From a bacterium (GTDB lineage Bacteria; UBA8248): a DNA stretch of 64,000 nucleotides. Positions 6,140 through 63,383 of the stretch are shown here, in pieces (the first letter of the stretch is position 1; each line of letters begins with the position of its first letter). Below the pieces are notes generated by a model. That model was not told the origin of the DNA, ran no database searches, and saw nothing but the letters and a program-made list of their open reading frames with translations. The translations under genes and the position numbers were made by a program. The stretch covers positions 832,001-896,000 of the forward strand of contig OZ241326.1 in the NCBI GenBank assembly GCA_965199855.1, read 5' to 3'.

Positions 6140-7225
6140 GTGTCGAACGAGGAGATCATCGACGAATTCATCGAGAAGACGGCGGCGCTGAACGGACGAA
6201 AGGTGCGCGAGCGCGAGGCGTGGAACAACGAGGCGAGCGCGGACGCCATCCGCCACTTCGCCTACGGCATCGACGACGACAACCCGCTCTGGCTGGACGC
6301 GGAATACGCCTCGCGCACCCGGCACGGAACCCTCCTCGCGCCGCCGGCGTTCCTGGCGTCGGCGCTCTACCCGATTCTGCACGGCGCGCCCATGGCGGCG
6401 CCTCTCTCCTCGCTCATCGGGGGCGTCGAATACGAGTGGAGCAGGACCATCCCGGTAGGCGCCAGGCTGCGCGCCGAGTCCATCCAGAAGGACTCATACG
6501 TCAAGACGAACAGGGCCGGCCGCCGGCTCATCTTCATCATCTCCGAATGCAGCTACTGGAACGAGAAGGAGGAGATCGTCGGCAGGGCGACGGGCACGAT
6601 GATCCGCGCCCCCCAGGAGGGGAACGCGCTTCTCTACGACAGGCCGATCAAGAAATACGACGAGGCGGAATGGCGGGAGATCGAGAGCGCCTACGAGGCC
6701 GAGGAGCGCAGGGGCGGCGAGAAGCGCCGCTTCGGGGACGTCTCCGTGGGCGACGAACTCCCGTCCATGATTCGAGGCCCCCTCACCATCGGCGACATGG
6801 TGGCCTGGAACGCGGGCAACGGCCCCTCCTACAGGGCGGGCAGGCGCGGCTACCTCGACCTCGGGAAGGCGCCGCACAACGCCGTCCTCATCCCCCAGAT
6901 CGGGATGCGGGTGAAGAACTCCCAGCAGCACGAGGACTTCAACCTCGCCTCGGGGCGCGGGATGCCGGGCCCCTTCGACAACGGCGTCATGCGCTTCGCC
7001 TGGGTGAGCCCCTTCATCACCAACTGGATGGGGGACGACGCCTTTTTGGAAAGCCTCTACGTCCAGGTGCGCCGCCCGATGATCTACGGGGACGTCATCC
7101 GGCACGCGGGCAGGGTGGTCGAGAAGAACGAGGCCGACGGCACCGTCAAGGTCGAGATTGCCGGAAAAAACCAGGAGGGCGAACTCGCGACGGCGGGCCG
7201 CGCCGTCGTCCGCCTCCCCGCGTGA
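6140..7225 (+). CDS. Double-hotdog MaoC/FAS1-like dehydratase
   Basis: AIRHFAYGIDDDNPLW, APPAF, second hotdog with VSVGDELP, QQHED, GMPGPFDNG; GTG start after GGAGGAG. Confidence 0.85.
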   Translation: MSNEEIIDEFIEKTAALNGRKVREREAWNNEASADAIRHFAYGIDDDNPLWLDAEYASRTRHGTLLAPPAFLASALYPILHGAPMAAPLSSLIGGVEYEWSRTIPVGARLRAESIQKDSYVKTNRAGRRLIFIISECSYWNEKEEIVGRATGTMIRAPQEGNALLYDRPIKKYDEAEWREIESAYEAEERRGGEKRRFGDVSVGDELPSMIRGPLTIGDMVAWNAGNGPSYRAGRRGYLDLGKAPHNAVLIPQIGMRVKNSQQHEDFNLASGRGMPGPFDNGVMRFAWVSPFITNWMGDDAFLESLYVQVRRPMIYGDVIRHAGRVVEKNEADGTVKVEIAGKNQEGELATAGRAVVRLPA

Positions 7226-7244
7226 GGCGCGAGGCGGCGAAGCC

Positions 7245-8015
7245 ATGACGCGGGACGGGCTGAGGCTCTTCTACGCGGAGGCGCGGGCGGTTCGGGAGGG
7301 GCGCGCCGCCCTGGGGCCGGAGGAGGCCGCTCACGCCAGCCGCGTTCTCAGGATGAAGCCGGGCGAGGTTTGCCGCGTGGCGACCGAGGAGGGCCGCGAA
7401 TACCTCGTGAGATGGACGGAAGTCTCCGCCGCCGGATGCGCCGGCGAAATCCTCGAGCGCCTGCCCGCGAGACCGCCCTCCCCCCTTTCGATTTCGCTCG
7501 GCCTGCCGCTGCTCAGGGGGGAGCGGTTTGAATGGACGCTTGCGAAGGGCTGCGAGCTCGGGGTCTGCGCGTTTCATCCGCTCGCGCTCGATCGGTGCGA
7601 GGCCAGGGTGCGGGAGAAGAAGAGCGCCGCGCGCCTGGGCCGCTGGCGGCGCGTCATCCTGGAAGCCTCCAAGCAGTGCGACCGCGTCCCCCCGCCCGAG
7701 GCGCGCGACCCGGGCGGACTGGACGACTACCTGGACGCGACGAGGGACTGCGACCTCAAGCTGATGGGCTTTCTGGGAGAAGGCGCGGGTTCCCTCGAGC
7801 AGGCGCTCTCACAGGCGCGCGATCGCGCGAATGGCGAGCCGCTTCGGGCCGCGCTCCTGACGGGCCCCGAGGGAGACTTCACGGATGAGGAATCCCGCCG
7901 GGCGATGGACGCGGGCTTCGCCCCGGTATCCCTGGGGCCGAGAATCCTGCGGGCGGACACGGCGCCCCTCGCGCTCGCCGCCATCGCGCAGCACGTCCTG
8001 GGCGACATGGGCTGA
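7245..8015 (+). CDS. rsmE: 16S rRNA m3U1498 methyltransferase
   Basis: HASRVLRMKPG, EASKQCDR, GPEGDF, SLGPRILRADTA. Confidence 0.93.
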   Translation: MTRDGLRLFYAEARAVREGRAALGPEEAAHASRVLRMKPGEVCRVATEEGREYLVRWTEVSAAGCAGEILERLPARPPSPLSISLGLPLLRGERFEWTLAKGCELGVCAFHPLALDRCEARVREKKSAARLGRWRRVILEASKQCDRVPPPEARDPGGLDDYLDATRDCDLKLMGFLGEGAGSLEQALSQARDRANGEPLRAALLTGPEGDFTDEESRRAMDAGFAPVSLGPRILRADTAPLALAAIAQHVLGDMG

Positions 8016-8108
8016 CATGCCGCTCCCCCGCCTGACGCCCCATCGCTTGACGCCTCCCCCGCCCCGTCCCAGGCCGCGGCTTTCCCCGCTTCAGGACGGA
8101 CGCTTCCG

Positions 8109-9389
8109 ATGAAGATCATCATCGTGGGGAGCGGCGGGCGCGAACACGCCCTGGCCTGGAAGCTGGGCCGCAGCCCGGAGGTGGACGAAGTCGTCTGCGC
8201 CCCCGGAAACGCGGGCACGGCGCGCGTCGGGCGCAACGCGCCGGTCGGGGCGGAGGACGTCGCGGGCCTCGTCGCGCTGGCGAGAGAGGAGAAGCCCGGC
8301 CTCGTCGTCGTCGGCCCCGAAGCCCCCCTCGCGCTCGGTCTCGTGGACGCGCTGGAGGCGGCCGGCGTCCGCGCGTTCGGCCCCTCGGCCGCGGCCGCCC
8401 GCATCGAGGCGAGCAAGGCGTTCTCCAAGGCGCTCATGGACGAGGCGGGAATCCCCACCGCCGCCTACGGGGTATTCGAGGAGGCGGAGGAGGCCGGAAG
8501 CTTCGTCTCGGAGCGCGGCGGCGCCTGGGCGGTGAAGGCGGACGGGCTGGCCGCCGGCAAGGGCGTCCTCCTTTGCCCCGACCCTCCGAGCGCGCGCGAG
8601 GCCATCTCCCGAATCATGGAGGAGAGGGCGTTCGGCGAGGCGGGCGCCCGATGCGTAGTGGAGGAGTTCCTCGAGGGCGAGGAGGCGAGTTTCCTCGCGT
8701 TCGTGGACGGCGAAGCCGCGCTCCCGATGGCCTCCGCCCAGGATCACAAGGCCGTCGGCGAGGGCGACGTCGGGCCCAACACGGGCGGCATGGGCGCGTA
8801 CTCTCCCGCTCCGGCGCTGTCGGGCGCGCTCGAGCGCAAGGCGCTCGAAACCGTCATCCAGCCCGCCGTCGACGCCATGGCGAGAAGGGGAACCCCCTAC
8901 AAGGGGGTTCTCTACGCCGGCCTCATGGCGCGGGGGGACGACCTGAAAGTCCTGGAATTCAACTGCCGGTTCGGCGACCCCGAATGCCAGCCGCTCCTCA
9001 TGCGCATGGAGGGGGACTTGCTGCCCCTCCTCATCGCGTGCGCGGAGGGCGGGCTGCGCGGAATGAAGGTGGATTATTCGGAGGACGCCGCCGTCTGCGT
9101 CGTCATGGCCGCGGGCGGCTATCCGGACGCCTACCGCAAGGGCGACGTGATTCGGGGAATCGACGACGCCGACGCCCTGCCCGGCGCGCGCGTCTTTCAC
9201 GCCGGAACGGCGCTGAACGACGCGGGCGAGGTGGTGACCGCGGGCGGCCGCGTGCTGGGCGTCACCGCGCGAGGGGCGGACGCGCGCGCCGCCATCGCGC
9301 GCGCCTACGAGGCGAGCGACCTCATCCACTGGGAAGACGCCTACTACCGAAAGGACATCGGCGCCAAGGCGCTCAGACGCCCTGGCTGA
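8109..9389 (+). CDS. purD: Phosphoribosylamine--glycine ligase
   Basis: GSGGREHALAW, GPEAPL, KADGLAAGKGV, GPNTGGMGAY, EFNCRFGDPE. Confidence 0.98.
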   Translation: MKIIIVGSGGREHALAWKLGRSPEVDEVVCAPGNAGTARVGRNAPVGAEDVAGLVALAREEKPGLVVVGPEAPLALGLVDALEAAGVRAFGPSAAAARIEASKAFSKALMDEAGIPTAAYGVFEEAEEAGSFVSERGGAWAVKADGLAAGKGVLLCPDPPSAREAISRIMEERAFGEAGARCVVEEFLEGEEASFLAFVDGEAALPMASAQDHKAVGEGDVGPNTGGMGAYSPAPALSGALERKALETVIQPAVDAMARRGTPYKGVLYAGLMARGDDLKVLEFNCRFGDPECQPLLMRMEGDLLPLLIACAEGGLRGMKVDYSEDAAVCVVMAAGGYPDAYRKGDVIRGIDDADALPGARVFHAGTALNDAGEVVTAGGRVLGVTARGADARAAIARAYEASDLIHWEDAYYRKDIGAKALRRPG

Positions 9390-9460
9390 GCGATGGCGGC
9401 GGCCGCCGCCTGAAAGCCCTCACCCCCGCCCGAAGCGAGCGGCGCAATCCGCCTCCGCGG

Positions 9461-9844
9461 TCAGGGGCCGCGCTTCACCCACGGAAATTTGTCATCGAGG
9501 CCCGGCCACGTCTCCCGGATGGCGAAAAAGCAGATGCCTATCCAGATGGCCAGCCCCAGGTCGAAGCCCTCGAGTATCCGCATCATCCAGACGAAATCGA
9601 ACGCGCCCAGAACGATCGCCGCGAGGTAGGCGCACCACGTGAACCCGCGCCAGGCTCCCAGCCCGAACAGGGCCAGGGCGGCGCCTCCCGCCAGCGTCGG
9701 CCAGCCGTAGCCCACCCTGCCCGGCTGATTCGTCCAGAGCGCCGACGCGGTGAAGGCGAGCATCAGCAGCGCGACCAGCAGCGCGACCCGCGCCGCGCGC
9801 CCGGGGTCGAACGCTCTCTCCCCGCTTCCGCCGGATTCGCTCAT
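9461..9844 (-). CDS. Small integral membrane protein (about 4 TM)
   Basis: Four hydrophobic segments in 127 aa starting MSESGG. Confidence 0.65.
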   Translation of the reverse strand: MSESGGSGERAFDPGRAARVALLVALLMLAFTASALWTNQPGRVGYGWPTLAGGAALALFGLGAWRGFTWCAYLAAIVLGAFDFVWMMRILEGFDLGLAIWIGICFFAIRETWPGLDDKFPWVKRGP

Positions 9845-9977
9845 CGTCCTCTCGCTCTGGAAGGGCCGCGCCGCGCGAAGGAAGGCTACGGCATCCGCCT
9901 CCCGTTGCCTAGCCGCTCCCGCGTGTGATGTAATCGGGCGGATGAAATCCCTTGTCATCTTTCGAGGAGGACGCGCT

Positions 9978-11024
9978 TTGAAGGCGATGGTGCTGAGAGA
10001 GCCGGGAAAACCCTTCGTCGAGGAGGAATATCCGGACCCCGAGCCCGGCCCCGGCGAGGCCGTCGCGAAGGTGCTCGCCTGCGGCGCCGGGCTGACGATC
10101 CACCACGCCCGCATGGGGCGGGTGCCCGGGGTGGAGTATCCCCTCGTCATCGGCCACGAGATCACGGGGGTGATCACCGCCGTGGGCGCGGGCGCGGAGG
10201 GGCTCGGGGAAGGCGACGCGGTGACCGCCTACTTCTACGTCACCTGCGGCGCCTGCAAATGGTGCCGCGTCAACCGCGAGACGCTGTGCGAGAATTTCGC
10301 GGGCTACGTCGGCCGCCAGGCGCAGGGCGCCTACGCGGAATACATCAAGCTCCCCGCGCGAAACTTCCTCAAGCTCCCGGCGGGGCTCGACCACGAGAAG
10401 AACGCGGCGGAGGTCTCCGTCATCTGCGACGCGATAGCCACCCCCTACAAGGTGACGAAGCGCGCGCGCATCGCGCCGACGGAGACGGTGGCCGTCATGG
10501 GCGCGGGCGGCGGCGTGGGAATCCACATGGTGATGATGGCGAAGTGGGCGCACGCGAGCGTCATCGCCGTGGACGTCGAGGCGAACAAGCTGGGCAAATG
10601 CCGCGACGTGGGCGCGGACGAGGCGGTGGACGCCTCGCGGGGGGACGTGGCCGGCGCGCTGCTCGACCTCACGGGGGGGGCGGGCGTGGACGTGGTGATC
10701 GATTTCGTCTCCTCCTCCGCCACGCTGGAGGCGGGCGTCCGAGCGCTGGGGCGCGGCGGGCGTCTGGTCGCCCTGGGCGGCACGGGCCAGCCGTTTCAAT
10801 CCGCGGCGCGCGATCTGGTGCAGAAGGAGCTGGAGCTTCTGGGCAGCCGATACGCGACGAAGCAGGAGGTGAAGGAGTCGCTCGACATCGTGGCGCGGGG
10901 CGACGTCTGGCCCGTGGTGACGGAGACCTACCCGTTCCGCGTCGATGAGGTGGAAAAGGTCCACGAGCGGCTGGAGCGCGCCGCCGTCACGGGCCGCGCC
11001 GTCATCGTGATGGACGAGGCCTGA
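9978..11024 (+). CDS. Zn-dependent medium-chain alcohol dehydrogenase
   Basis: GHE motif, CGACKWC..C structural Zn site, GAGGGVG; TTG start after GAGGAGG. Confidence 0.92.
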   Translation: MKAMVLREPGKPFVEEEYPDPEPGPGEAVAKVLACGAGLTIHHARMGRVPGVEYPLVIGHEITGVITAVGAGAEGLGEGDAVTAYFYVTCGACKWCRVNRETLCENFAGYVGRQAQGAYAEYIKLPARNFLKLPAGLDHEKNAAEVSVICDAIATPYKVTKRARIAPTETVAVMGAGGGVGIHMVMMAKWAHASVIAVDVEANKLGKCRDVGADEAVDASRGDVAGALLDLTGGAGVDVVIDFVSSSATLEAGVRALGRGGRLVALGGTGQPFQSAARDLVQKELELLGSRYATKQEVKESLDIVARGDVWPVVTETYPFRVDEVEKVHERLERAAVTGRAVIVMDEA

Positions 11025-50078: not shown

Positions 50079-51431
50079 TCAAAATAGACGGGGGTCAGCA
50101 GAAAACTTATCTTTCGCCAAGTATTCACGAACCAATTCTACTGACCAAGGTTCTTTCAGTTTTTTCTTTTCAACGTCTTTGGCAAGTTCAGCGGCAGACG
50201 CAAAACTACCGCTGAGAGATGTCCCTCGCCTCTCAAAAAACTCAGTTCTACTAAGCACTACTGCAACTTCGTCTTTCGGTGCGCGCCATTCGTACACGAT
50301 TGCAACATGCTTCGAAGTACTTCCACCGCTATCAAAGTATACCGCTCCAATCAATTTAATGGATGAGGGATCGACTTGGAGTCGCAACTCCTCTTCGAGT
50401 TCCCGGACGGCGCAACTAACTAATGGGGTGCCGTTAACGGCATCTTCGCATCGGACATGTCCACCGGCCCAAATTACGAGCTTCTCATGCAAGGGATTAC
50501 TATTCTTTTTTTCATGGCGGCGAAGACGAAGGACGTCCCCGTTCGCATTCCGAACAACTACTACTGGGAGTGCCTGGACCCGAGAAGCATCATTTTCTAC
50601 CTCGTCTCTAATCAAGAAGTTGCTATCGTCACATTCTGCGAAATATCGGACCAATTCATGCGCTTTGGAATTATCAATAAAATTTCTACCTTCAAATAAT
50701 CCCGTCACGACTTCCTTGGAGCATGAAAGAATATTTTCTGCGATTTGCTCTTCTATCAAACCAAGAATGCAATCAACGACAGTTTCAGCCGTAGATTTTT
50801 GCTCTCTTTTTCTAGAAGTATCAAGGCAATATATCCGAAAATCTTCCCCAAGCTGCGAGGCGCATTGTTTGTTAACTTTCTTAATCTGCTCGAGTATCAG
50901 AGGATTCATGATGGAGCCCTCTTTTTCATCCACAGGGAGTATGCCTTGCTCACGTTTCATTGCGTCCGATGGAGAGACAAGCATTACAAAAACAGCCGAG
51001 ATTCGCTTCCTCCAATCATCAATCGTGAGAAATCTTTGGATGATTTCCCTTTCACTCGAGCGCAAGCGCGAGATTTGCTCCATCATGGTCAGCCAGCAGA
51101 TGGAATCGAAGAGCCCTCGATCGAGAAAAAGAATCTGTGGGTCATCGGCTCGTGGTGGCTCTTGTGTTTTGTCTAAAATCTGAGCGAGTGTCGTACACGC
51201 GGTCCAGATATTAAAATTCGCGTGTTTTTTATCTCGAATTGGGCAAACAGAAGCACGCTCGACAACGACATCCGTCCGAAAACCGGAACGCTTGAGAAAT
51301 GTCTGCACATGCGACAGAGTTGTCGTTTTACCTGCTTTTGGGACTCCCGCAAACTCAATGACCAACGGCTTGCGGGCTTTTTCATCAAATTGTTTCGCTA
51401 AACGCTCTGCTCGTTTTTGAAAATCTCCCAT
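50079..51431 (-). CDS. P-loop nucleotide kinase-like plus NUDIX hydrolase fusion
   Basis: IEFAGVPKAGKTT, FLDRG; VQALP, GGHV..AVRELEEEL; AT-rich compared with flanks. Confidence 0.85.
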   Translation of the reverse strand: MGDFQKRAERLAKQFDEKARKPLVIEFAGVPKAGKTTTLSHVQTFLKRSGFRTDVVVERASVCPIRDKKHANFNIWTACTTLAQILDKTQEPPRADDPQILFLDRGLFDSICWLTMMEQISRLRSSEREIIQRFLTIDDWRKRISAVFVMLVSPSDAMKREQGILPVDEKEGSIMNPLILEQIKKVNKQCASQLGEDFRIYCLDTSRKREQKSTAETVVDCILGLIEEQIAENILSCSKEVVTGLFEGRNFIDNSKAHELVRYFAECDDSNFLIRDEVENDASRVQALPVVVVRNANGDVLRLRRHEKKNSNPLHEKLVIWAGGHVRCEDAVNGTPLVSCAVRELEEELRLQVDPSSIKLIGAVYFDSGGSTSKHVAIVYEWRAPKDEVAVVLSRTEFFERRGTSLSGSFASAAELAKDVEKKKLKEPWSVELVREYLAKDKFSADPRLF

Positions 51432-54297: not shown

Positions 54298-55179
54298 CTA
54301 CATCGCCTTCAGCGCGATGAGCGCCCCGCCCGCCACGACCGAGAGCGTCCCCAGCAGGATGGGGGGCGTTATGCGCTCCACGTCGCGCAGGAACATCCAG
54401 GCGAACAGCAGCGCGAAGAGCGGCGCGGTGGAGGAGAGCGGGGAGACCACCGAGACGTCCCCGTATTTGAGCGCAGCGAAGTGGCTCAGAAAGGCCAGCG
54501 TGTTGATGATCCCGCAGGGGCCGTAGAAGCTCCAGGCGCGCCCGCGCCCGAGGGAGGGGCGCTGGGCCCGCGGCAGAAATCCCACGAGGACGAGCAGTGC
54601 CGCCAGGCCGAACGCGCTGGTGAGCGTGATGCCCAGAAGCGCCGAGGGAACGAGGTCGATTCCGATCTTCCGGAAAATGTTGGAGGCGGAGAAGCCGAGC
54701 ACGGCCACGAGCGGCAGCCAGACGGCGCGCCTGTCCCAGGGGGCGTCGCTCTTCCGCCGCCAGGTGATGCCCGCGCAGCCGAAGACGACCAGGAGGATTC
54801 CCGCCCACACCCAGAAGCCCGGCCGCTCGCCCAGGAAGACGAAGGCGAAGCCCGCCGAGAAGAGCGGATTCGCGGCGAGAAGCGGAATCGCGCGCGACAC
54901 GCCCAGGCTGTGGATGGCGCGGAACATGAACACGCGGCCTATCGCCGGCCCCGTGACGCCCGAGAGGAAGAACCAGAACCACGCCTCCGCGCTCCACCAG
55001 GCGGGCTCCCAGGCGAGAACGGTGAGCGCGGCGAGCCAGGGGACGCTGACGATCAGGCCGATGACGACGCCCGTAAGCGCCGTTCCGTGCCGCTGCCCCC
55101 GCCGGGCGATGAGGCTGAACGCCGAGGACATCGACGCCGTGCCCAGGGCGAACCCCGCCGCCAGCAGCGCGTCATTCAT
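54298..55179 (-). CDS. DMT/EamA family transporter
   Basis: About 10 TM segments, two EamA repeats, FLGERP, VSVVSPL. Confidence 0.9.
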   Translation of the reverse strand: MNDALLAAGFALGTASMSSAFSLIARRGQRHGTALTGVVIGLIVSVPWLAALTVLAWEPAWWSAEAWFWFFLSGVTGPAIGRVFMFRAIHSLGVSRAIPLLAANPLFSAGFAFVFLGERPGFWVWAGILLVVFGCAGITWRRKSDAPWDRRAVWLPLVAVLGFSASNIFRKIGIDLVPSALLGITLTSAFGLAALLVLVGFLPRAQRPSLGRGRAWSFYGPCGIINTLAFLSHFAALKYGDVSVVSPLSSTAPLFALLFAWMFLRDVERITPPILLGTLSVVAGGALIALKAM

Positions 55180-55371
55180 CGCTCCATGCGCCTCTCCCCC
55201 GCCTCGCCGGAACGAAACCCCGCGCCCGACTCCCGCAAGCCTCATACCAGAGGCGGGAGCGGGCGGCTATCGGGCGCAGGCTCCCGGCGCGTCGCTCGCC
55301 CCCCGGCGCGTTGTCAGCCCTTCTCCCAAGCCTTATAGTGCCTCCTCCGCTCATTCCGTATCGGGGACGCC

Positions 55372-56520
55372 GTGAGCCTGCTTCCGCAAATGGACGTGGA
55401 TGACGCCGCCGCGCGGCTGGCCTCGGCGCGCGAGGTCATGCGCGCGGAGTATCGCAAGAGGCACCGCGATCCGTGGGTCGTCGCCTACTCCGGCGGCAAG
55501 GATTCGACCCTGCTCCTCCATCTGGCGTGGGAGGTCATGCTGTCGCACCCTCCGGAGGAGCGCAGGCGCGAGATTCACGTCGTGGCGAACGACACCCTCG
55601 TCGAATCGCCCCTCGTCATCCGGCATCTGAAGAAAAGCCTCAACGCCATCCGCAAGGCGGCGGAGAAGGATCGCCTGCCCGTTCGCGTCACCCTGACGAA
55701 GCCCTGCGTCGATCAGACCTTCTGGGTGAACGTGATCGGGCGCGGCTACATTCCGCCGACGCGCAACTTCCGGTGGTGTACGGACAGGATGAAGATAAAG
55801 CCAACCGAATACGTATTGGAAAAACTGATGCTCGCCCACGGGCGCGCCGCGCTGCTGGTCGGAACCCGCAGGAGCGAATCCCAAACCCGCCGCCGCAGCA
55901 TGAAAAAGCGCGGCGTCCGCGCCGACAGGATGAAGCCGCACGGAAGCGTGAAGGGCCTGCGTATGTTCGCGCCCCTCGCCGACCTGCGGGACGAGGACGT
56001 GTGGATGATTCTCATGCAGCTCAAGCCGCCCTGGGGCGGCTCCCACCGCGACCTCGTCACCCTCTACCGCAACGCGGGCGGCGGCGACTGCCCGCTCGTG
56101 CTGAGCAAGGAGGACGCCCCCTCGTGCGGGACGACCTCGCCGCGCTTCGGCTGCTGGACGTGCACCGTCGTCAAGAAGGACAGGAGCCTGCGCGGGCTGA
56201 TCGACTCCGGCCACGAGGAGGAGAAGCTCGAGGCGCTCGCCGACTTCCGGGAGTGGCTCATCGAGCTGCGCGAGAACGACGGAAACCGCATGACGGTGCG
56301 GCGGGACGGCAAGATCAAGCTCAGGACGAACGGAGAGGTCGTCATGGGGCCGTTCCGCTTCGAGGCGCGCGAGGAGATTCTTGCGCGCCTGCGGAAACTG
56401 GAGGGCGAGGTCGGGGAGCGGCTCATCTCGCCATCGGAAATCGAGATGATCGAGGACATCTGGCGGGTCGATAGAATCCGCGAAGACGGGCGGCTGGCGC
56501 TGATAGAGGCGTGCGGATGA
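55372..56520 (+). CDS. dndC: DNA phosphorothioation sulfurtransferase DndC-like (PAPS reductase family)
   Basis: PWVVAYSGGKDST, DTLVESP, FWVNVIGRGY, FRWCTDRMKIKP, GTRRSES, PPWG, CPLV, RFGCWTCTVV. Confidence 0.9.
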   Translation: MSLLPQMDVDDAAARLASAREVMRAEYRKRHRDPWVVAYSGGKDSTLLLHLAWEVMLSHPPEERRREIHVVANDTLVESPLVIRHLKKSLNAIRKAAEKDRLPVRVTLTKPCVDQTFWVNVIGRGYIPPTRNFRWCTDRMKIKPTEYVLEKLMLAHGRAALLVGTRRSESQTRRRSMKKRGVRADRMKPHGSVKGLRMFAPLADLRDEDVWMILMQLKPPWGGSHRDLVTLYRNAGGGDCPLVLSKEDAPSCGTTSPRFGCWTCTVVKKDRSLRGLIDSGHEEEKLEALADFREWLIELRENDGNRMTVRRDGKIKLRTNGEVVMGPFRFEAREEILARLRKLEGEVGERLISPSEIEMIEDIWRVDRIREDGRLALIEACG

Positions 56521-58298
56521 GTATCTCGAACGGCACCGGGACTATCATCAATACCAAACCGATGATCTTCTCGCATCTGTTTCATACAGGAAGATTTGAG
56601 GTCCCTTGGCACCAACGCCGCTACGACTGGACGAAAGAGCACGTCTGGGAGCTGTTGCGCGATATTGACGAAGCCGTCAGAGAAAAGCGCAAGTGCTATT
56701 TTCTCGGCGCGATCATGCTTTTGCAAAAAGACGAAAGAGTTTGGGAAATCAACGACGGCCAGCAACGCATGGTGACGTTTTCTCTCATCTGCGCCTGCCT
56801 CTGCCGCTTGTTCTATGAAGCGAGCGAACAGCTTCACGAGAACCGCGCACTTCGGGTTTTGTTCAACTTAGATGTGAACAGTACCGCACGATTGCCCGAC
56901 GCCGCCGAACTTGACCCGCGGCTTACACCGCCACGAGACGACAAGACCCGCTACAACCTGATGATTCGAGGAGAAAGCATCGGGACCAACGGCAAGCTCA
57001 CCGATGCGTGGGCGGAAATTGAGCGATTCTTTGAGGGCATGGAAATAGAAAAGCATAAGCAGTTCATGGATTATCTACTCAACAACATCGAAGTCGCGTG
57101 CCTGTACATCCCGGACGACGTTGACCCAAACTCCGTCTATGAAACACTCAACTGCCGGGGAAAACAGCTCGAAGATTTAGACCTGATCCGCAACTACCTG
57201 TATTCCTACTTCAACGCCGCTGAGGAACAACCCCGCCGCGACACAGTGCATGATAATCTCGAAAATATACGCACCCAGCTTAGAACAGACGCAAAAACAG
57301 GTGAATATGCGCGATGTTATTTTCAGTGCAAATATGGCTTTTTGCCAAAGCAAAAATTTTACCGCACGGCCCGCATCAAAATCCGTTCCCTGCTGAGCCC
57401 CGAAAAGCCGGCGGATGACATCTATAATTTGGTGACCGACTTCGCCCGCCAAGAGCGAGTAGAGATTTTTCAGACAATCACAAATCCGAGTGCAACAGAT
57501 TCTCTGATCAAAACCTTTCAAACACATTCCAACTCGAACAGAACCAAGCGAAATTTGTCGATTTTCCTACAGGAACTGAAAAACTATAAAGTAGCGCAAC
57601 CCATGGTGTTCGCGTTGCTAAACCGCTATGTCATGGAATCAAACGCGACAGAGAAGAGGCGTTTGGCGAAGCGCATTCACGGCAACCTGAAACACATTAC
57701 TTCTTTTGTCATGCGGACGGCTTTCGTCGCTCCCAAATTCGAGCCCTCACACTTCGAGAGCGAATTTTCCAGCCTCGCGAAAAAGATCATGTCAGCCGAA
57801 AAGCCTGACAATATCGACATCATGCGCTCCCTAAAAGAGTTTGACGGCACTTATGGAATAATCGACGATGACAGATTCATTGACAAGATGAAGGTTGTCG
57901 AAATGCGAAATACGCGCGATACGAGAAGAAAGCGTTTTCTGCTCGGCGTGAACCACTCCATACAAAGAGACAGTAGCCTGCTCAACGAAACACAGTGCAC
58001 CGTCGAGCATATTTTTCCCCGGTCTGAGGAACATTGGCAGGGCTGGCATAATTTCGAGGAGCATAATCCCGAAGATTGGGTGCATAGGCTTGGCAATCTG
58101 ACGCTACTGGGACAAGAAGACAACAAACCGGGGAGAGACGACAATAGAGATTTCTCTCGCAAAAAAGAAGTTTTCGATCGGAGTGCAATCACGCTTACCC
58201 GAGAATTGCTTGATCGGGAAGATTGGTCTCCGAAAGCGATAACCGCCAGGCAGGAAAAATTGGCGAAAATCGCCGCAAAGGAAGTGTGGTCTTTTTAA
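56517..58298 (+). CDS. DUF262 plus DUF1524 (HNH) protein, GmrSD/SspE-like endonuclease
   Basis: QRRYDW, DGQQR, YETLNCRG; TVEHIFP, LGNLTLL; ATG overlaps dndC stop (ATGA). Confidence 0.92.
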   Translation: MSISNGTGTIINTKPMIFSHLFHTGRFEVPWHQRRYDWTKEHVWELLRDIDEAVREKRKCYFLGAIMLLQKDERVWEINDGQQRMVTFSLICACLCRLFYEASEQLHENRALRVLFNLDVNSTARLPDAAELDPRLTPPRDDKTRYNLMIRGESIGTNGKLTDAWAEIERFFEGMEIEKHKQFMDYLLNNIEVACLYIPDDVDPNSVYETLNCRGKQLEDLDLIRNYLYSYFNAAEEQPRRDTVHDNLENIRTQLRTDAKTGEYARCYFQCKYGFLPKQKFYRTARIKIRSLLSPEKPADDIYNLVTDFARQERVEIFQTITNPSATDSLIKTFQTHSNSNRTKRNLSIFLQELKNYKVAQPMVFALLNRYVMESNATEKRRLAKRIHGNLKHITSFVMRTAFVAPKFEPSHFESEFSSLAKKIMSAEKPDNIDIMRSLKEFDGTYGIIDDDRFIDKMKVVEMRNTRDTRRKRFLLGVNHSIQRDSSLLNETQCTVEHIFPRSEEHWQGWHNFEEHNPEDWVHRLGNLTLLGQEDNKPGRDDNRDFSRKKEVFDRSAITLTRELLDREDWSPKAITARQEKLAKIAAKEVWSF

Positions 58299-58422
58299 GC
58301 TGTTGCATGGAAAGACATTTTGGGAGATATTGAACTGGAGGATGGTTGATTCAGTTGTCGCACAAAGTAGTATTCACATGCCAAGAACAAAGGGCGCAAA
58401 ATTATCGTAAGGGGTCAAACCT

Positions 58423-59241
58423 ATGGCAAGGATTGTCGAATATCGGGAAATCCCGCTTGATCAACTGGTCATCAGCAAGGGACAAGCGCGAGTAGAGAAT
58501 GTTCGGCAAGGAATTGAGGATTTGGCCAGGAGCATTGAGGTACAAGGACTTCTGCAACCGATTGTAGTGTGCCCGGCAACGCAGGAAGGAAAATACGAAA
58601 TACTTACGGGGCAACGACGTTTTCTTGCGCATCAAGAACTGAAAAAGGAAACCATCACTGCCGCTGTTCTTGATGAGCGCGTTGAAGAGGAACAAGCCAA
58701 GACCATCTCAATTACCGAAAATCTGATGCGGCGCAAGCTATCCGGGAAAGAACTGATCGATGGAGTCACTTATTTGCACAACAAATACGGGAGTGCAAAA
58801 GCTGTAGCCGAAGCCACGGGCCTACCCTCCAATGATGTCAGGCAATATGTGAAGTATCCGCGGCTAATACCCAAACTGAAAAAAATGGTCGATGACGGTC
58901 TCGACATCAAGGTTGCCTTGAAGGCTCAGGATGCCGCTACAGAAGGCGATGAAGTCAACCACGAAGACGCTATCAAACTAGCGCAGGAAATGCCCCCGAT
59001 GTCTGGCGCCCAACAGAAAAAGCTCGTTCAAGAGCGTAAAAGTCATCCTGACAAACCGATCGATGATGTAATCGAAGACGCGAAAACCGGCTCAAAGATC
59101 ACCCAGGTACTCGCAACCGTAACCCGAAACACGCATGTCGCTATCCAGAAATTCGCCAATGAGGAAGGATATAACCAGGATGAAGCGGCGGCAGTTCTCA
59201 TTGAGGAAGCGTTGATCGGTCGCGGCCTCCTGGAAGAATAG
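58423..59241 (+). CDS. ParB/Spo0J-family protein (CTPase, HTH, RHH-like tail)
   Basis: LARSIEVQGLLQPIVV, YEILTGQRRFLA, ITENLMRRKLS. Confidence 0.9.
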   Translation: MARIVEYREIPLDQLVISKGQARVENVRQGIEDLARSIEVQGLLQPIVVCPATQEGKYEILTGQRRFLAHQELKKETITAAVLDERVEEEQAKTISITENLMRRKLSGKELIDGVTYLHNKYGSAKAVAEATGLPSNDVRQYVKYPRLIPKLKKMVDDGLDIKVALKAQDAATEGDEVNHEDAIKLAQEMPPMSGAQQKKLVQERKSHPDKPIDDVIEDAKTGSKITQVLATVTRNTHVAIQKFANEEGYNQDEAAAVLIEEALIGRGLLEE

Positions 59242-59246
59242 ACTAG

Positions 59247-59969
59247 ATGATCTCCGGTTTGAGTTCCTTGGAACTTGGGCGTCTCCGAATGTCCGTGGGC
59301 TACGGAGCAAACAAGAAGGGCCGACTTCTCTCTCCCATAGAAGTTGCTTCGCTTCTTCACAATGCGCGCCACGAGGGCGCTTCTCTTAGTGACTGCGCAA
59401 CCGCAATCCACCTTAACGAAACGGGCGCCAGTCGTTTTCTTCGCATTCTAAACCTCCCCCAGGATATTCAGCATCTAATCGACTGGGGAACTCCCCAAAA
59501 TGGCATTGGCTTTTCGACTGCCGTTGAGCTGGCCCGGCTTCAGGATGTTGACGATCAGCGCGCTGTCGCCGACTCGATTCTCTCGATCGGCCTAACCAGC
59601 AAAGAAGTCCGACAAGTCGCGCAACTCCGGATCAGATCGGGGCGCTCCATTGGCGCGTGCGTCAAAGAAGTCTTGGGAATGCGCCCAACTATCGAGAGAC
59701 GCTATGTTTTTATTGGCTCAGTACTTGAGCAGGGCATTGCGGATGCGCTCACCGAGCTTACTCAAGCGGAGAGAGATTCCATCCTTGAATCAGGCATTGA
59801 GCGACTCCATCTTCAAGGAGCATCCGGCCGGCTTGGAAAGCGGCTCTTCACGCTGGTCGGGGACGAGAGCTTTAACGAATCGATGAAAACTGTCGGCAAG
59901 GAGAACATCGAGGAGCAGCTCTGCAACCACATCGCAGAGGCTGTCGGGAATGCCTTCTCCCACCGTTGA
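59247..59969 (+). CDS. ParB-like HTH protein lacking the CTPase domain
   Basis: LSPIEVA..GASLSDCATAIHLNETGASRFLRILNLPQDIQ..IGFSTAVELARL resembles the ParB/KorB central domain. Confidence 0.7.
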   Translation: MISGLSSLELGRLRMSVGYGANKKGRLLSPIEVASLLHNARHEGASLSDCATAIHLNETGASRFLRILNLPQDIQHLIDWGTPQNGIGFSTAVELARLQDVDDQRAVADSILSIGLTSKEVRQVAQLRIRSGRSIGACVKEVLGMRPTIERRYVFIGSVLEQGIADALTELTQAERDSILESGIERLHLQGASGRLGKRLFTLVGDESFNESMKTVGKENIEEQLCNHIAEAVGNAFSHR

Positions 59970-60978
59970 CGTTTTGGGGAGCGGCGCCATCTGCCTCGGC
60001 TCGAAAATAGTATGTGATGGTTTCGCGGAGGGGTATCCTTTCCGCGTGCAGACGCATGTCCACGACGATCACATGAGCGAATTCAACAAGAGCAAGGGGT
60101 TTCAGGACATTTTTATGAGTCCGGAAACCCATGATCTGCTGATCGCGGAATACGACGCGGATATTGAATTTCGCAGCAACCTCCGGCGGGTCGAGCGCAA
60201 CATCGAACATGTCTTTGCCGATGGTTCAAAACTATCTCTTCTGCCCTCCCACCACATGCTTGGTTCGCGCCAAGTCGCGCTCGAGTTGTCCGATGGCTAC
60301 TGCATCGGCTATTCGGGCGATTTCGGTTGGCCTCTTGATGAGGTCATTCAGGTTGACGAACTTGTTGTGGACAGCACCTATGGAAGCCCCCAAAGCGTGC
60401 GTCGCTACACCCAAGCGGAAGCGGAAGAATGTCTGTTGGGTATTGTATGTGAACGATTGCACTATGGCCCCGTCCATATCAAAGCCCACAGGGGAACTAT
60501 CGAGCGCGTCCTCCAGGTCCTGTGGGGCGACATCAGCGTTCCGATTCTCGCGACCGAACGCCTCATTCGGGAAGTGGAAGTCTATCAGAACTACGGATTC
60601 GCTATTGGAACTTTGGTTTCACTTGACTCGGAAGCAGGCCAATCCGCCGTGAAGGAGCGGGCCTATGTTCGATTGTATTCAAAGGGCGATGGCTTCGGAA
60701 ACGAGCCCGCCGGCGGGACGAGCGTCACATGCAGCGCTTATATGACCAACGTCGACCATCCGCTTATTACATATTCAGAGCGGGCTTATGGCGTGGCGCT
60801 GTCCAACCATGCGGATTTTAATGGAACGCTCGCCTATATCGAGGCTACGGGAGCCAAGAAGGTCGTCACGGACAACACGCGAAGGCATGGGTGGGATTTG
60901 GCCATCGCCATCAATCAGCGTCTTGCGGGCGTGGAAGCCAAGCCGTCGTCGAACCTGACCGGATCGCGCTGGCAATAG
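59950..60978 (+). CDS. MBL-fold (beta-CASP-like) nuclease/hydrolase
   Basis: THVHDDH, HHMLGS, YSGDF, DSTYG, SNHADF. Confidence 0.88.
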   Translation: MPSPTVDVLGSGAICLGSKIVCDGFAEGYPFRVQTHVHDDHMSEFNKSKGFQDIFMSPETHDLLIAEYDADIEFRSNLRRVERNIEHVFADGSKLSLLPSHHMLGSRQVALELSDGYCIGYSGDFGWPLDEVIQVDELVVDSTYGSPQSVRRYTQAEAEECLLGIVCERLHYGPVHIKAHRGTIERVLQVLWGDISVPILATERLIREVEVYQNYGFAIGTLVSLDSEAGQSAVKERAYVRLYSKGDGFGNEPAGGTSVTCSAYMTNVDHPLITYSERAYGVALSNHADFNGTLAYIEATGAKKVVTDNTRRHGWDLAIAINQRLAGVEAKPSSNLTGSRWQ

Positions 60979-61012: not shown

Positions 61013-63052
61013 TCACCCCCCCGGCGGGTCGCAGGGGGCGTAGCGCGAAAAGCGCATGACGAAGGCGGCGCGGCCCTGGGTGGCGGAGCGAAGCGCCGTG
61101 GCGTAGCCGAACATCCTGGCGAGGGGCGCCGAGGCGCGGACGACGCTCACCGGCGAGGCGCCGCCGCGCTCCTCCGTCGCGGATATCCTCCCGCCGCGCG
61201 CGGCGAGGTCGCCCAGGACGGCGCCCAGGAACTCCCCCGGGGTCGTCACCTCCACCGACATGACGGGTTCGAGCAGCCGCCCGCCCGCCGCGCGGCAGGC
61301 CTCCGTGAAGGCGTTCGCCGCCGCGATGGCGAAGGCGGCCTCGGAGGCGCGGGCGGGGTCGTAGTCCGCCTCCAGCAGGCGGACGCGCAGGTCGGTCATC
61401 TCGTAGCCCGCCATCGCCCCGCTCGACGCGGACGCCTCGATGGATTCCAGCGCGGCGGCGGCGAGGCTCGCGGGAATCACGGAGTCCTCCAGCGCGCTCT
61501 CGCGCGAGACGCCCGCCCCGGGCGAAGGCGCCACGCCCACGCGCACCCGCGCGAAGCGGGGCTCGCCCGCCAGCTCGCGCTCGAAGACGGACTCCGCCTC
61601 AGCCTCCTTCAGGAGCGTCTCCCGATACACCACGCGGGGGGCGCCGACGCGGACGCGGACGCCGAATTCCTCCTCCAGGCGGCGCGCGAGCACCTCCAGA
61701 TGGAGCTCGCCCATGCCGCTCATCACCGTCTGGCCGGACTCCGCGTCCGCCCGCGCCAGGAAGGTGGGGTCCTCCGCCTGGAGCTTCGCCAGCGCCTCGT
61801 CCAGCTTCCGCGCGCCCGCGGCGTCCGCGGGCTCCGCCGCGACCGAGATGACGGGCCGGGGCGCGCGAATGGACTCGAACGCCACCGGCTCCCTCCCGTC
61901 GCAGAGGGTGTCGCCCGTGGCGGCCTCCTTCAGGCCCGCCGCCGCCACGATGTCGCCCGGCCCGGCGGACTCCAGGCGCTCGCGCTTGTGGGAATACATC
62001 CTGAAGATCCGGGCGAGGCGCTCGGCGCGCCCCCGCGCGGGGTTCCACAGGCTCTCGCCCGCCCTGGCCGAGCCGCTGTACACCCTCAAATAGGTGAGGC
62101 GCCTGCCCTCGTCCATCTGCACCTTGAAGGCGAGGGCGGAGAAGGGGGCGTCCTCCGTCGGCGGGCGGACGGCGCGCTCCCCGTCCCCGGGCCGCGCGCC
62201 GCTCGCGGGGGGGACGTCCGCCGGCGAGGGCAGATAGTCCACCACGGCGTCCAGCAGGGGCTGCGCGCCCATGCTCCTGAGAGAGGAGCCGCAGAAGACG
62301 GGCACGAGCTCGCCCGCGAGCACGGCGCGCCGCAGCGCCGCCTTCACCGCGCCGGCGTCCGCGCGGCCGTCCTCCAGATACGCCTCCATCAGGGCTTCGT
62401 CGCAGTCCGCCGCCGCCTCGACGAGCGCCTCCCGCAGCCGCGCCGCCTTCTCCGCGAGCGCCCCGGCGGGCCGGGAGCGGCGGAGCGCCCCCTCCTCCCA
62501 GGTGAGAAAATCGCCGCTCAGCGCCTCGACCTGGCCGGCGTAGCGCTCCCCCTCCCCGTCGGGCCAGTGCATGAGCGCGGGCCTGGCGCCCAGTTTCTCG
62601 GCCATCATCTCCACCGTCCGCTCGAAGTCGGCGCCCAGGCGATCCATCTTGTTGATGAAGGCGATTCTCGGCACGCCGAACCTGTCCGCCTGGCGCCAGA
62701 CGGCCTCGCTCTGCGGCTCGACGCCCTCCACCGCGCTGAAAATCGCGACGGCGCCGTCCAGCACGCGCAGGCTTCTTTCCACCTCGATCGTGAAGTCCAC
62801 GTGGCCGGGGGTGTCGATGATGGTGATCTCGTGCCCCGCCCAGACGGTGGTGATGGCCGCCGAGGTGATGGTGATGCCGCGCTCGCGCTCCTGGCGCATC
62901 CAGTCCATGGTCGCCGAGCCGTCGTCCACCTCGCCGAGGCGGTGCACGGCGCCCGAGCAGAACAGCATCCGCTCGGTGGTCGTCGTCTTCCCGGCGTCGA
63001 TGTGGGAGATGACGCCGATGTTTCTTCTCATCGAAAGCGCGGGGCGCTTCAT
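61013..63052 (-). CDS. Elongation factor G paralog (EF-G2-like)
   Basis: [43 protein letters not shown]; degenerate domain IV; not in the str operon. Confidence 0.93.
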
Positions 63053-63152
63053 CGGAAAATCCCCTCCCCCCGGAGCCGGGGCGCAGGTTACCTTGACGGG
63101 GACGGGACGGGAAAGCGCGGGCGCGCGCCGGGGACGCGCCCGGACGGGGGAA

Positions 63153-63383
63153 TCAGGCGGCCTCGGGCCTCTGCGGGGTTTTGGGATTCCACCCGGCGAA
63201 GGGGAGCTCAGGCGCGGGCGTAAGCCTCGACTCGAGCTCCTCCTGGCGATGGCGCCAGTCCTCATAGGAGATTCGGCGCTGCAGATAGAGGGCGAGGTTC
63301 CTCATGCACGCCTGGTGGATGCGCCTCGAGTTCCGGCTCGTCTCATTCATTCCGTATCCGGGTCTTCGTTCCGTGGTCGCCAT
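63153..63383 (-). CDS. Small hypothetical protein (76 aa)
   Basis: Strong RBS AAAGGAGG before ATG; helical central segment. Confidence 0.55.

Follow-up and report, generated by a model that had tools for sequence, protein, structure and literature searches.

A five-gene locus of an uncultured bacterium is probably a reduced, mosaic copy of a recurrent phosphorothioate-type defence island

Gene content of the locus

The window analysed here comprises 64,000 nucleotides of a bacterium of the lineage UBA8248 (contig OZ241326.1, positions 832,001 to 896,000, assembly GCA_965199855.1) and belongs to a complete genome of 3.04 Mb with approx. 70% GC. In the following, G000 denotes this host genome, G001-G026 the genomes of relatives and L with a number an examined locus. 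Between the genes of an EamA-family transporter and an elongation factor G (EF-G) paralogue, both on the minus strand, five open reading frames (ORFs) on the plus strand code for a short DndC, a DUF262-DUF1524 nuclease, a ParB-type protein, a second ParB-like protein with only the helix-turn-helix domain (ParB-HTH) and a protein of the metallo-beta-lactamase (MBL) fold (Table 1). A preliminary description had proposed these five co-oriented genes as a defence system linked to DNA phosphorothioate (PT) modification, and all five were found intact. Homology and gene neighbourhood suggest that the locus is probably a reduced, mosaic copy of a recurrent PT-type defence island.

Table 1. Features of the five-gene locus and its flanks. 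Positions refer to the window.
Feature	Position	Strand	Basis or remark
EamA-family transporter gene, left flank, core gene of the genus	54298..55245	-	orthologues in G001, G008, G010, G015: EamA 1e-27 to 4e-33
Promoter-like site TTGTCA-17-TATAGT 5' of dndC	55311..55339	+	consensus scan, 10/12 matches; pattern match only
Short DndC, PP-loop sulfurtransferase type	55372..56520	+	TIGR03183, PADLOC DndC, PAPS_reduct
DUF262-DUF1524 (GmrSD/DndI/SspE-type) nuclease	56511..58298	+	GmrSD_N + GmrSD_C
Spacer between nuclease and ParB genes, 124 nt	58299..58422	.	site of a ~465-aa SNF2 helicase gene in 38/38 related full loci
ParB/Noc-type protein, NTP-binding N-domain + HTH	58423..59241	+	ParB_N, TIGR00180
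ParB paralogue, HTH only + unassigned alpha/beta C-terminal half	59247..59969	+	HTH_ParB, predicted model + Foldseek
Beta-CASP metallo-beta-lactamase-fold nuclease	59950..60978	+	fold match + motifs; no Pfam match
EF-G paralogue, right flank, core gene	61013..63265	-	GTP_EFTU 2e-62 + EFG domains

Short DndC and the coupled nuclease

The product of the first gene matched the Pfam family PAPS_reduct (3.5e-12), the PADLOC DndC model (2.4e-109) and TIGR03183, the last with 332.4 bits compared with an NCBI equivalog cut-off of 290.4 and over profile positions 11-360 of 447 only. The PADLOC SspD model matched at 8e-08 only, which points to a writer of the DndC and not of the SspD type. Phage PAPS-reductase families matched far more weakly (4e-30) than the DndC models, and neither the single sequence nor the family profile found a match among solved structures. 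The combination of PAPS reductase and ParB may resemble the IbrA/IbrB pair. The probable start codon is the ATG at 55390, in agreement with a called protein of 376 amino acids (100% identity). Alignment with canonical DndC extends over approx. 360 residues and leaves approx. 95 canonical C-terminal residues without counterpart; at a guess, these may be the part that serves DndD and DndE. The SGGKDS motif is retained and so are the Fe-S cysteines Cys240, Cys261 and Cys264. The matching cysteines of the aligned canonical DndC sequences show a spacing of 18+3, which corresponds to C262, C280 and C283. C280 of DndC is named in PMC11662687.

The window's DndC retained 136 of the 139 residues that are conserved in the family (positions at least 95% conserved). 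At residue 196 (codon at 55957-55959) the window and the two relatives nearest to it, P0125 and P0135, have Leu instead of the Cys of the short-family motif GC[RWFL]xFAP, and canonical DndC has Ala at this position. With this Leu, the writer of the window's clade could be inactive or altered. The best 120 database relatives of the short DndC have 328-416 residues and the same C-terminal end. Truncation of dndC by the insertion of the low-GC genes behind it was considered and rejected, because the short length and the end are common to G001, G008 and these 120 relatives. The short DndC thus represents a conserved subfamily that is full-length in its own right. The preliminary description had named a dndC left behind by a deleted dndBCDE operon as the finding that would speak against a defence system; the short form does not fit that scenario.

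The second product matched GmrSD_N (1.5e-25) and GmrSD_C (4.6e-25). Its best PADLOC family was HEC-06 (1.8e-72 over the full length), followed by 'Orf5' with 4e-54, and SspE models matched weakly (1e-13). Among solved structures, the best relative was DndI (9JFL; 3.7e-9), in which both domains were matched. DUF262 with the DGQQR motif and an HNH-type DUF1524 domain are combined in one protein of approx. 600 residues, and 98 of 98 family-conserved residues were retained, including DGQQR and the nuclease residues EH..P, GN and N. The probable start codon at 56517 overlaps the dndC stop codon as ATGA, an overlap by which the two genes are predicted to be translationally coupled. A second, distant DUF262/DUF1524-like gene is located outside the window (G000:C1:1902406-1904022) and was detected by tblastn with the GmrSD proteins of G015 (1.5e-18) and G008 (1.2e-08).

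The ParB, ParB-HTH and MBL proteins

The third product matched ParB_N (2.6e-16) and TIGR00180 (1.1e-20), and the profile of its family matched Noc/ParB structures with 1e-20 to 2e-12 over positions 6-162. Its GQRRFLA and TEN..R motifs are retained, as are 59 of 61 conserved residues, and an N-domain with GxxRxxA and ENLxR motifs is followed by a helix-turn-helix, as in the clamp family. The chromosomal ParB of the genome is located at G000:376791; the ParB of the locus is a divergent second one. The fourth product matched HTH_ParB (1.4e-06) and retained 23 of 23 conserved residues. In its predicted model (predicted local distance difference test, pLDDT, 92) residues ~30-140 matched the DNA-binding domains of ParB, Noc and Spo0J in Foldseek searches (E 2e-3, prob 1.0, root mean square deviation 2.7-3 A).

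Sequence comparison of the fifth product gave TIGR04122 (2.8e-15, below cut-off) and SNM1A (0.045). Foldseek aligned the predicted model (pLDDT 88) with CPSF73, SNM1A, Artemis and Apollo (4e-16 to 1e-13), the range extending to 2e-12 when RNase J is included, and the top matches were beta-CASP enzymes throughout. The HxHxDH motif is present, with H36, H38, D40 and H41 invariant, and 82 of 82 conserved residues were retained. By predicted fold and motifs, the product of gene 5 is a beta-CASP MBL nuclease.

PADLOC-DB 2.0 gave no match for ParB-HTH and MBL and only PD-Lambda-5_A (3.5e-4) for ParB; none of the three matched a Dnd or Ssp restriction model of PADLOC. Compared with the copy in G009, the trio showed pN values of 0.17-0.22 and pS values of 0.72-0.79 (saturated), i.e. 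a dN/dS of ~0.1, which indicates purifying selection. The MBL protein found no match among PLSDB plasmids at 1e-10, and the MBL alignment yielded 44 pattern matches among IMG/VR viral contigs with no relative among them.

Recurrence of the gene set in other lineages

A scan for short DndC with one genome per species gave 568 relatives. The best 80 loci (61-94% identical) were examined, and their ORFs were sorted by local phmmer searches and all-against-all clustering. All 80 come from metagenome-assembled genomes (MAGs), which by record titles belong to about a dozen phylum-level lineages, the phylum placing of some orders being our own assignment; sponge-symbiont names such as Poribacteria, Poriferihabitaceae, Spongiihabitans and Porisulfidus are frequent. 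The nuclease gene lies directly 3' of dndC in 72 loci. Directly 5' of dndC, a class-V aminotransferase, i.e. a cysteine desulfurase of the IscS/DndA type (PF00266, 4e-84), is encoded in 59 of the 80 loci. A cassette of SNF2, ParB, ParB-HTH and MBL genes is present in 38 loci, and a 39th is cut after SNF2. A DndB-like DGQHR protein and a small ORF occur without the cassette in 31 loci, and both alternatives together in three more. The other ten carry HNH_4 proteins, lone fragments or nothing recognised. A DndD-like ABC ATPase was found within 8 kb in four loci, never together with DndE. Median intergenic gaps of -23 to +4 nt demonstrate tight packing. Since the same tightly packed order recurs in 38 of 80 loci of other lineages, the gene set is more than a chance assembly. 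The full form consists of seven genes coding for desulfurase, short DndC, nuclease, SNF2, ParB, ParB-HTH and beta-CASP MBL.

Two further features deserve mention. In 26 of the 80 loci, for example at 10918-11229 in L018, the conserved small ORF (~103-112 residues, no Pfam or PADLOC match) separates the nuclease gene from the DndB-like gene. L039 (9246-12124) carries a short dndC, then a gene for a fusion of SAM-methyltransferase and HNH_4 (588 residues) and then a lone ParB-HTH gene, with neither ParB nor MBL.

The ParB cassette beside three types of phosphorothioate writer

A scan of metagenome contigs starting from the MBL protein yielded 23 loci. In all ten with DNA upstream of SNF2, a PT writer is located directly upstream in the same direction. 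Eight of these (L095, L097, L098, L099, L101, L102, L106 and L112) show canonical DndCDE or as much of its end as the contig contains, with scores of 562 bits for DndC over the whole profile, 488-493 for DndD and 85-87 for DndE, and with 461 for DndB in L106. L096 has a short DndA-DndC-nuclease set upstream of the cassette, and L111 has SspBCD (PADLOC e-98 to 0), the cassette taking the position of SspE. In L114, ParB, ParB-HTH and MBL genes without SNF2 are convergent to SspABCD; L113 and L105 have a convergent DndC fragment or a desulfurase at their end. The other ten of the 23 break off at the cassette or within it and are hence uninformative. In five canonical loci a desulfurase gene follows MBL, which places the cassette inside the operon.

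A maximum-likelihood tree of the MBL proteins requires at least two to three switches of writer type on well-supported branches. The module moves among three mechanistically different, complete PT writers and therefore looks like a reader or effector rather than a part of the writer. The preliminary description had assumed that the ParB proteins stand in for DndB, DndD and DndE. This assumption is not supported by the neighbourhoods: cassettes also stand behind complete DndCDE, DndBCDE and SspBCD, each with targeting proteins of its own, and 31 loci have a DndB-like gene in place of the cassette. As the cassette is shared by three writers, a restriction module is ranked above such a replacement, and the ParB module is best read as a putative PT-linked restriction module.

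Genes absent from the window's copy

Family searches of the complete genome gave no match for DndD (TIGR03185) and DndB, and DndC was found once only. The corresponding search with the DndE model (TIGR03184) gave no match, and its control was equally silent. Furthermore, tblastn of the genome gave no match at E <=1e-5 with queries taken from related loci (DndD and DndE of L106, DndB, SspB-, SspC- and SspD-like proteins and the SNF2 of the cassette). PADLOC gave no match for the neighbouring ORFs scanned; dndFGH, pbe and parA had no family search of their own. The two tyrosine recombinases of the genome are both located outside the window. The preliminary description had stated that nothing else of these systems and no integrase lies nearby, which mostly holds, and for DndD and DndB extends to the genome; for DndE the model search with its silent control carries no such weight.

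No cysteine desulfurase is encoded in the window, and because the EamA gene abuts dndC the copy has no desulfurase of its own. Five class-V aminotransferase genes occur elsewhere in the genome, one of them IscS-like and 52% identical to the cassette desulfurase. E. coli IscS can replace DndA for Dnd (PMC10853773). In the relatives, the SNF2 gene (PF00176 and PF00271) lies between the nuclease and ParB genes. The spacer at this site contains no remnant of SNF2 or of a small protein, and it showed no similarity to G008 or G009 DNA. Thus five of the seven genes of the full array are present here, with desulfurase and SNF2 absent from the locus. A full-length DndC including the C-terminal region, a pair of DndD and DndE and a DndA within the locus are likewise absent; as Dnd requires DndD, DndE and a full-length DndC, the window does not contain a canonical Dnd system. 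The two absent genes, the C-terminally short DndC and the differing histories of DndC and the other genes go beyond the preliminary description.

Local history and mosaic origin

Genes 2-5 have 47-55% GC and a GC content at third codon positions (GC3) of 0.51-0.63 in a genome with 70% GC. The GC3 of dndC is 0.89, which equals the host composition. DndC and the four low-GC genes behind it have different histories. The content of the site between EamA and EF-G differs among members of the genus. It is empty in G010 and most others. In G001, an orthologous DndC (94% amino acid identity) precedes an HNH_4 protein and an AAA_16-like protein; DndC, nuclease and a DndB-like protein are encoded in G008, and a DndC fragment and a nuclease in G015. 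Of 23 congeners, five were found to have DndC and two the MBL gene.

The closest relatives of the window's ParB, ParB-HTH and MBL are those of G009 (72, 64 and 73% identity), and the window MBL is sister to that of G009 in the maximum-likelihood tree (support 99/97). The G009 trio (L011, G009:C2, 5705-10671) has no SNF2 and adjoins vsr and a split dcm (C5-methylase) gene. Judged by the relationships of its parts, the window locus is a mosaic.

A 2082-nt contig from another study (run X4, labelled sponge metagenome) bridges positions 57924-60005 with 3 differences. Since it spans the junction of nuclease and ParB genes, the SNF2-less form exists beyond this assembly. A second X4 contig bridges EamA, DndC and nuclease (54800-56779), where 25 letters and 4 gaps differ. 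This contrast, from one sample only, may reflect a later spread of the low-GC part compared with the DndC part. Contigs of run X9 cover DndC and nuclease and not the trio, and gaps between contigs carry no weight here. The window copy itself looks alive, as suggested by full-length frames and conserved residues that are nearly all retained.

Some details of the relatives may be added. The first ~20 residues of the G009 ParB have no counterpart in the window ParB. In L009 (G001, 7054-9988) and L012 (G026, 7881-10315) an HNH_4 endonuclease (381-384 residues) replaces the DUF262-DUF1524 nuclease after the short DndC; in G026 it is followed by a DndB-like protein, and DndC is split into two ORFs.

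Comparison with known systems

PT-based immunity comprises the writers Dnd, Ssp, Tdp and BREX type 4 and the readers DndFGH, DndI, SspE, SspFGH and Pbe. Among described systems, IscS-DndBCDE-DndI of Salmonella enterica Cerro 87 comes closest; its DndI is a PT-sensing DUF262-DUF1524 nickase of 596 residues (PMC11662687). This system has in common with the window a writer of the DndC family fed by a desulfurase and a nickase with DUF262 (DGQQR) and DUF1524 (HNH). In contrast, the window has no DndB, DndD or DndE, its DndC is approx. 95 residues shorter, Tyr25 of DndI is replaced by His, the similarity of the nuclease to DndI is low, and a ParB/ParB-HTH/beta-CASP module is added. SspABCD-SspE likewise combines a desulfurase and a PAPS-reductase-type writer with a DUF262-DUF1524 effector (PMC11662687, PMC8092258). 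It differs from the window, where the writer is of the DndC type, the SspB nickase and the SspC ATPase are absent and SspE models matched weakly. TdpAB is reportedly a hexameric translocase-nuclease, unlike SNF2, ParB and beta-CASP. TdpABC, a compact PT system mentioned in PMC12914056 and PMC13223576, is a precedent for a writer without DndD and DndE: tdpC alone is stated to suffice for PT synthesis (PMC12914056).

DndFGH and SspFGH are multi-gene modules beside PT writers that combine NTP-driven DNA tracking with a nuclease (PMC10853773, PMC8092258), a role that the SNF2-ParB-ParB-HTH-MBL cassette may share. The protein families are unrelated, with DndF kinase-like, DndG a winged helix-turn-helix protein and DndH a HerA/FtsK protein with a restriction endonuclease (REase) domain. 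With the CTP-dependent clamps of chromosomal ParB and Noc, the window ParB shares the N-domain motifs and the helix-turn-helix; it differs by its divergent sequence and by its partners, an HTH-only paralogue and a nuclease. HEC-06, the best PADLOC family of the nuclease, is a stand-alone DUF262/DUF1524 candidate; the window gene is instead coupled to dndC.

Four described systems were considered for the cassette and rejected on their components: PbeABCD (HKD-SF2 helicase, small protein, CxC ABC ATPase and DndE; PMC10853773), SspFGH (Walker-A protein and FtsK-like protein; PMC8092258), Menshen (DUF262, ABC ATPase and effector; PMC12065111) and BREX type 4 (BrxP with DUF4007, BrxC, PglZ and BrxL; PMC12839542), BrxP matching here with 1.2e-11 only. 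Section 6 of PMC12914056 mentions small clusters in which DndC is accompanied by P-loop genes and a DUF262 gene; the window's system is not described there. Nucleases beside Dnd operons are listed in sections 12 and 17 of PMC10853773 without a ParB module. In full-text literature, subscription journals and supplementary tables excepted, we found no description of SNF2-ParB-ParB-HTH-beta-CASP with PT writers, and PADLOC knows only the first two genes of the locus. This agrees with the preliminary description, which knew of no described system with this gene set. A PT system in sponge metagenomes was reported to be enriched and 'not functionally complete' (PMC5099237). The island is widespread and apparently undescribed, in uncultured and largely sponge-associated bacteria.

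Interpretation and alternatives

Homology and neighbourhood support a PT-linked, defence-type locus as proposed in the preliminary description. The short DndC would take sulfur from a housekeeping cysteine desulfurase and put PT marks on the host DNA. The desulfurase gene 5' of dndC in 59 of the 80 loci makes sulfur transfer to DNA the most economical reading. The coupled DUF262-DUF1524 enzyme would read PT via its NTPase domain and nick DNA like DndI or SspE. ParB, together with its HTH-only partner, could act as an NTP-switched clamp that is loaded onto DNA and recruits the beta-CASP nuclease to foreign DNA without marks. The ParB module would thereby be a second, PT-dependent restriction module with a role comparable to that of DndFGH or SspFGH. 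SNF2 would supply translocation in the full systems, and the trio of the window might work in a reduced way or is being lost.

Several observations weigh against this reading. The window's own order, in which ParB directly follows the nuclease, occurred neither among the 80 genome loci nor among the 23 from metagenomes. SNF2 is present in all 38 full loci, so that the helicase is probably needed and the trio may be disabled here. G009 possesses the trio, and its genome (95% complete) yielded neither DndC nor SspD, which argues that the trio can persist without a PT writer. The identity of the window nuclease is 69-73% with the nucleases of DndB-type loci (L016, L072 and G008) and only 40-56% with those of cassette loci. 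It carries a His (PWHQR) opposite the PT-sensing Y25 of DndI in the phmmer alignment, and this His is conserved (at least 95%) among 65 aligned family members. All 23 other short-form rows of alignment A4, and at least 95% of the 71 family members, have the Cys196 that is Leu in the window. A writer without DndD and DndE is at odds with the published view of these two proteins as the obligate core of Dnd modification (PMC10853773, section 12). Finally, all functional statements, for every member of the family, follow from homology and gene neighbourhood.

The main evidence for a lack of any functional link among the five genes comes from the site itself. The locus would then consist of leftovers of separate hot-spot insertions: a resident DndC with swapped partners, a stand-alone HEC-06-like type IV nuclease and an SNF2-less trio that is inactive or independent of PT. 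The variability of the EamA/EF-G site, with DndC in 5 and MBL in 2 of the 23 congeners, the step in GC3 between dndC and the other four genes and their mosaic origins are all expected from such leftovers, and the missing SNF2 and desulfurase, the writerless trio of G009 and the Leu at residue 196 point the same way. However, all five frames are full length with nearly every conserved residue retained, dndC and the nuclease gene appear translationally coupled, and DndC-nuclease is paired with the ParB module in 38 of 80 loci. Moreover, the trio is apparently under purifying selection and the arrangement is kept in samples of another study, so that we consider mere leftovers doubtful. ParB, ParB-HTH and MBL, with SNF2, could also be part of the modification machine and replace DndD, DndE and DndB in the targeting of the short DndC. 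Such a role would account for a DndC without the canonical tail in a genome without detectable DndD or DndE, for the scarcity of DndD-like ABC ATPases (4 of 80 loci) and the lack of DndE near the short dndC genes, and for the position of the cassette between dndE and dndA in canonical operons; a ParB-family protein, DpdB, does serve DNA modification (PMC12839542). This alternative is nevertheless improbable: DndC does not need the cassette, as 31 of the 80 short-DndC loci are without it, nine loci pair the cassette with a full targeting set of their own (DndD and DndE or SspB and SspC), and the window lacks the only motor ATPase of the cassette.

Least probable of the alternatives, with only a slight chance in our estimate, is that the short DndC makes no backbone PT and instead subjects DNA, nucleotides or RNA to a different ATP-dependent sulfur chemistry or to adenylation, which the nucleases would sense. 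PP-loop enzymes carry out many reactions. The missing C-terminal domain, DndD and DndE, the conserved cysteine that the short family has and canonical DndC lacks, and the His of the nuclease at the PT-sensing Tyr position of DndI would agree with it. In contrast, the DndC score lies above the NCBI equivalog cut-off, the Fe-S cysteines of DndC are retained, a DndA/IscS-type desulfurase precedes 59 of the 80 genes, and the downstream cassette also accompanies bona fide Dnd and Ssp writers. A further-reading proposal of two parts is conceivable but rather unlikely. The short DndC and the coupled DUF262-DUF1524 protein might form a self-sufficient, two-protein PT restriction-modification unit, in which the ParB-superfamily DUF262 domain takes over the scanning function of DndD and DndE. 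ParB, HTH-only ParB and beta-CASP might be a new NTP-switched clamp-nuclease that reads the PT of any writer (Dnd, Ssp or short DndC) and is able to act without the SNF2 motor, as the window and G009 suggest.

If the reading as a reduced copy of a PT-type defence island is true, a DndC writer would be freed of DndD and DndE, which challenges their obligate role (PMC10853773), and a helicase-ParB-nuclease module interchangeable among three writers would be a general PT reader, by which a ParB-type NTP switch enters restriction. The island family is very common in uncultured bacteria, largely those associated with sponges, and absent from the plasmid and viral collections searched. The abundance of the family in these bacteria may explain the remark on functional incompleteness in PMC5099237. 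The main interest lies in the family itself; the window copy, as a natural variant without SNF2 and desulfurase, would be useful as a built-in deletion control.

Flanking genes and a second foreign insert

The DNA of the EamA region is conserved to 77-85% in most congeners and has a GC3 of 0.90. The EF-G paralogue on the other side is conserved in 29 of 31 relatives searched. No tRNA gene was found in the window. An isolated gene with 45% GC is located at 50079-51431 on the minus strand in surroundings of 70% GC. It is another foreign insert and precedes the five-gene locus by 4 kb. Its product of 450 residues combines an N-terminal P-loop domain (AAA_28 9e-5, below cut-off) with a C-terminal NUDIX domain (3e-6); PADLOC gave no match, and phrog_8902 matched with 1.7e-12.

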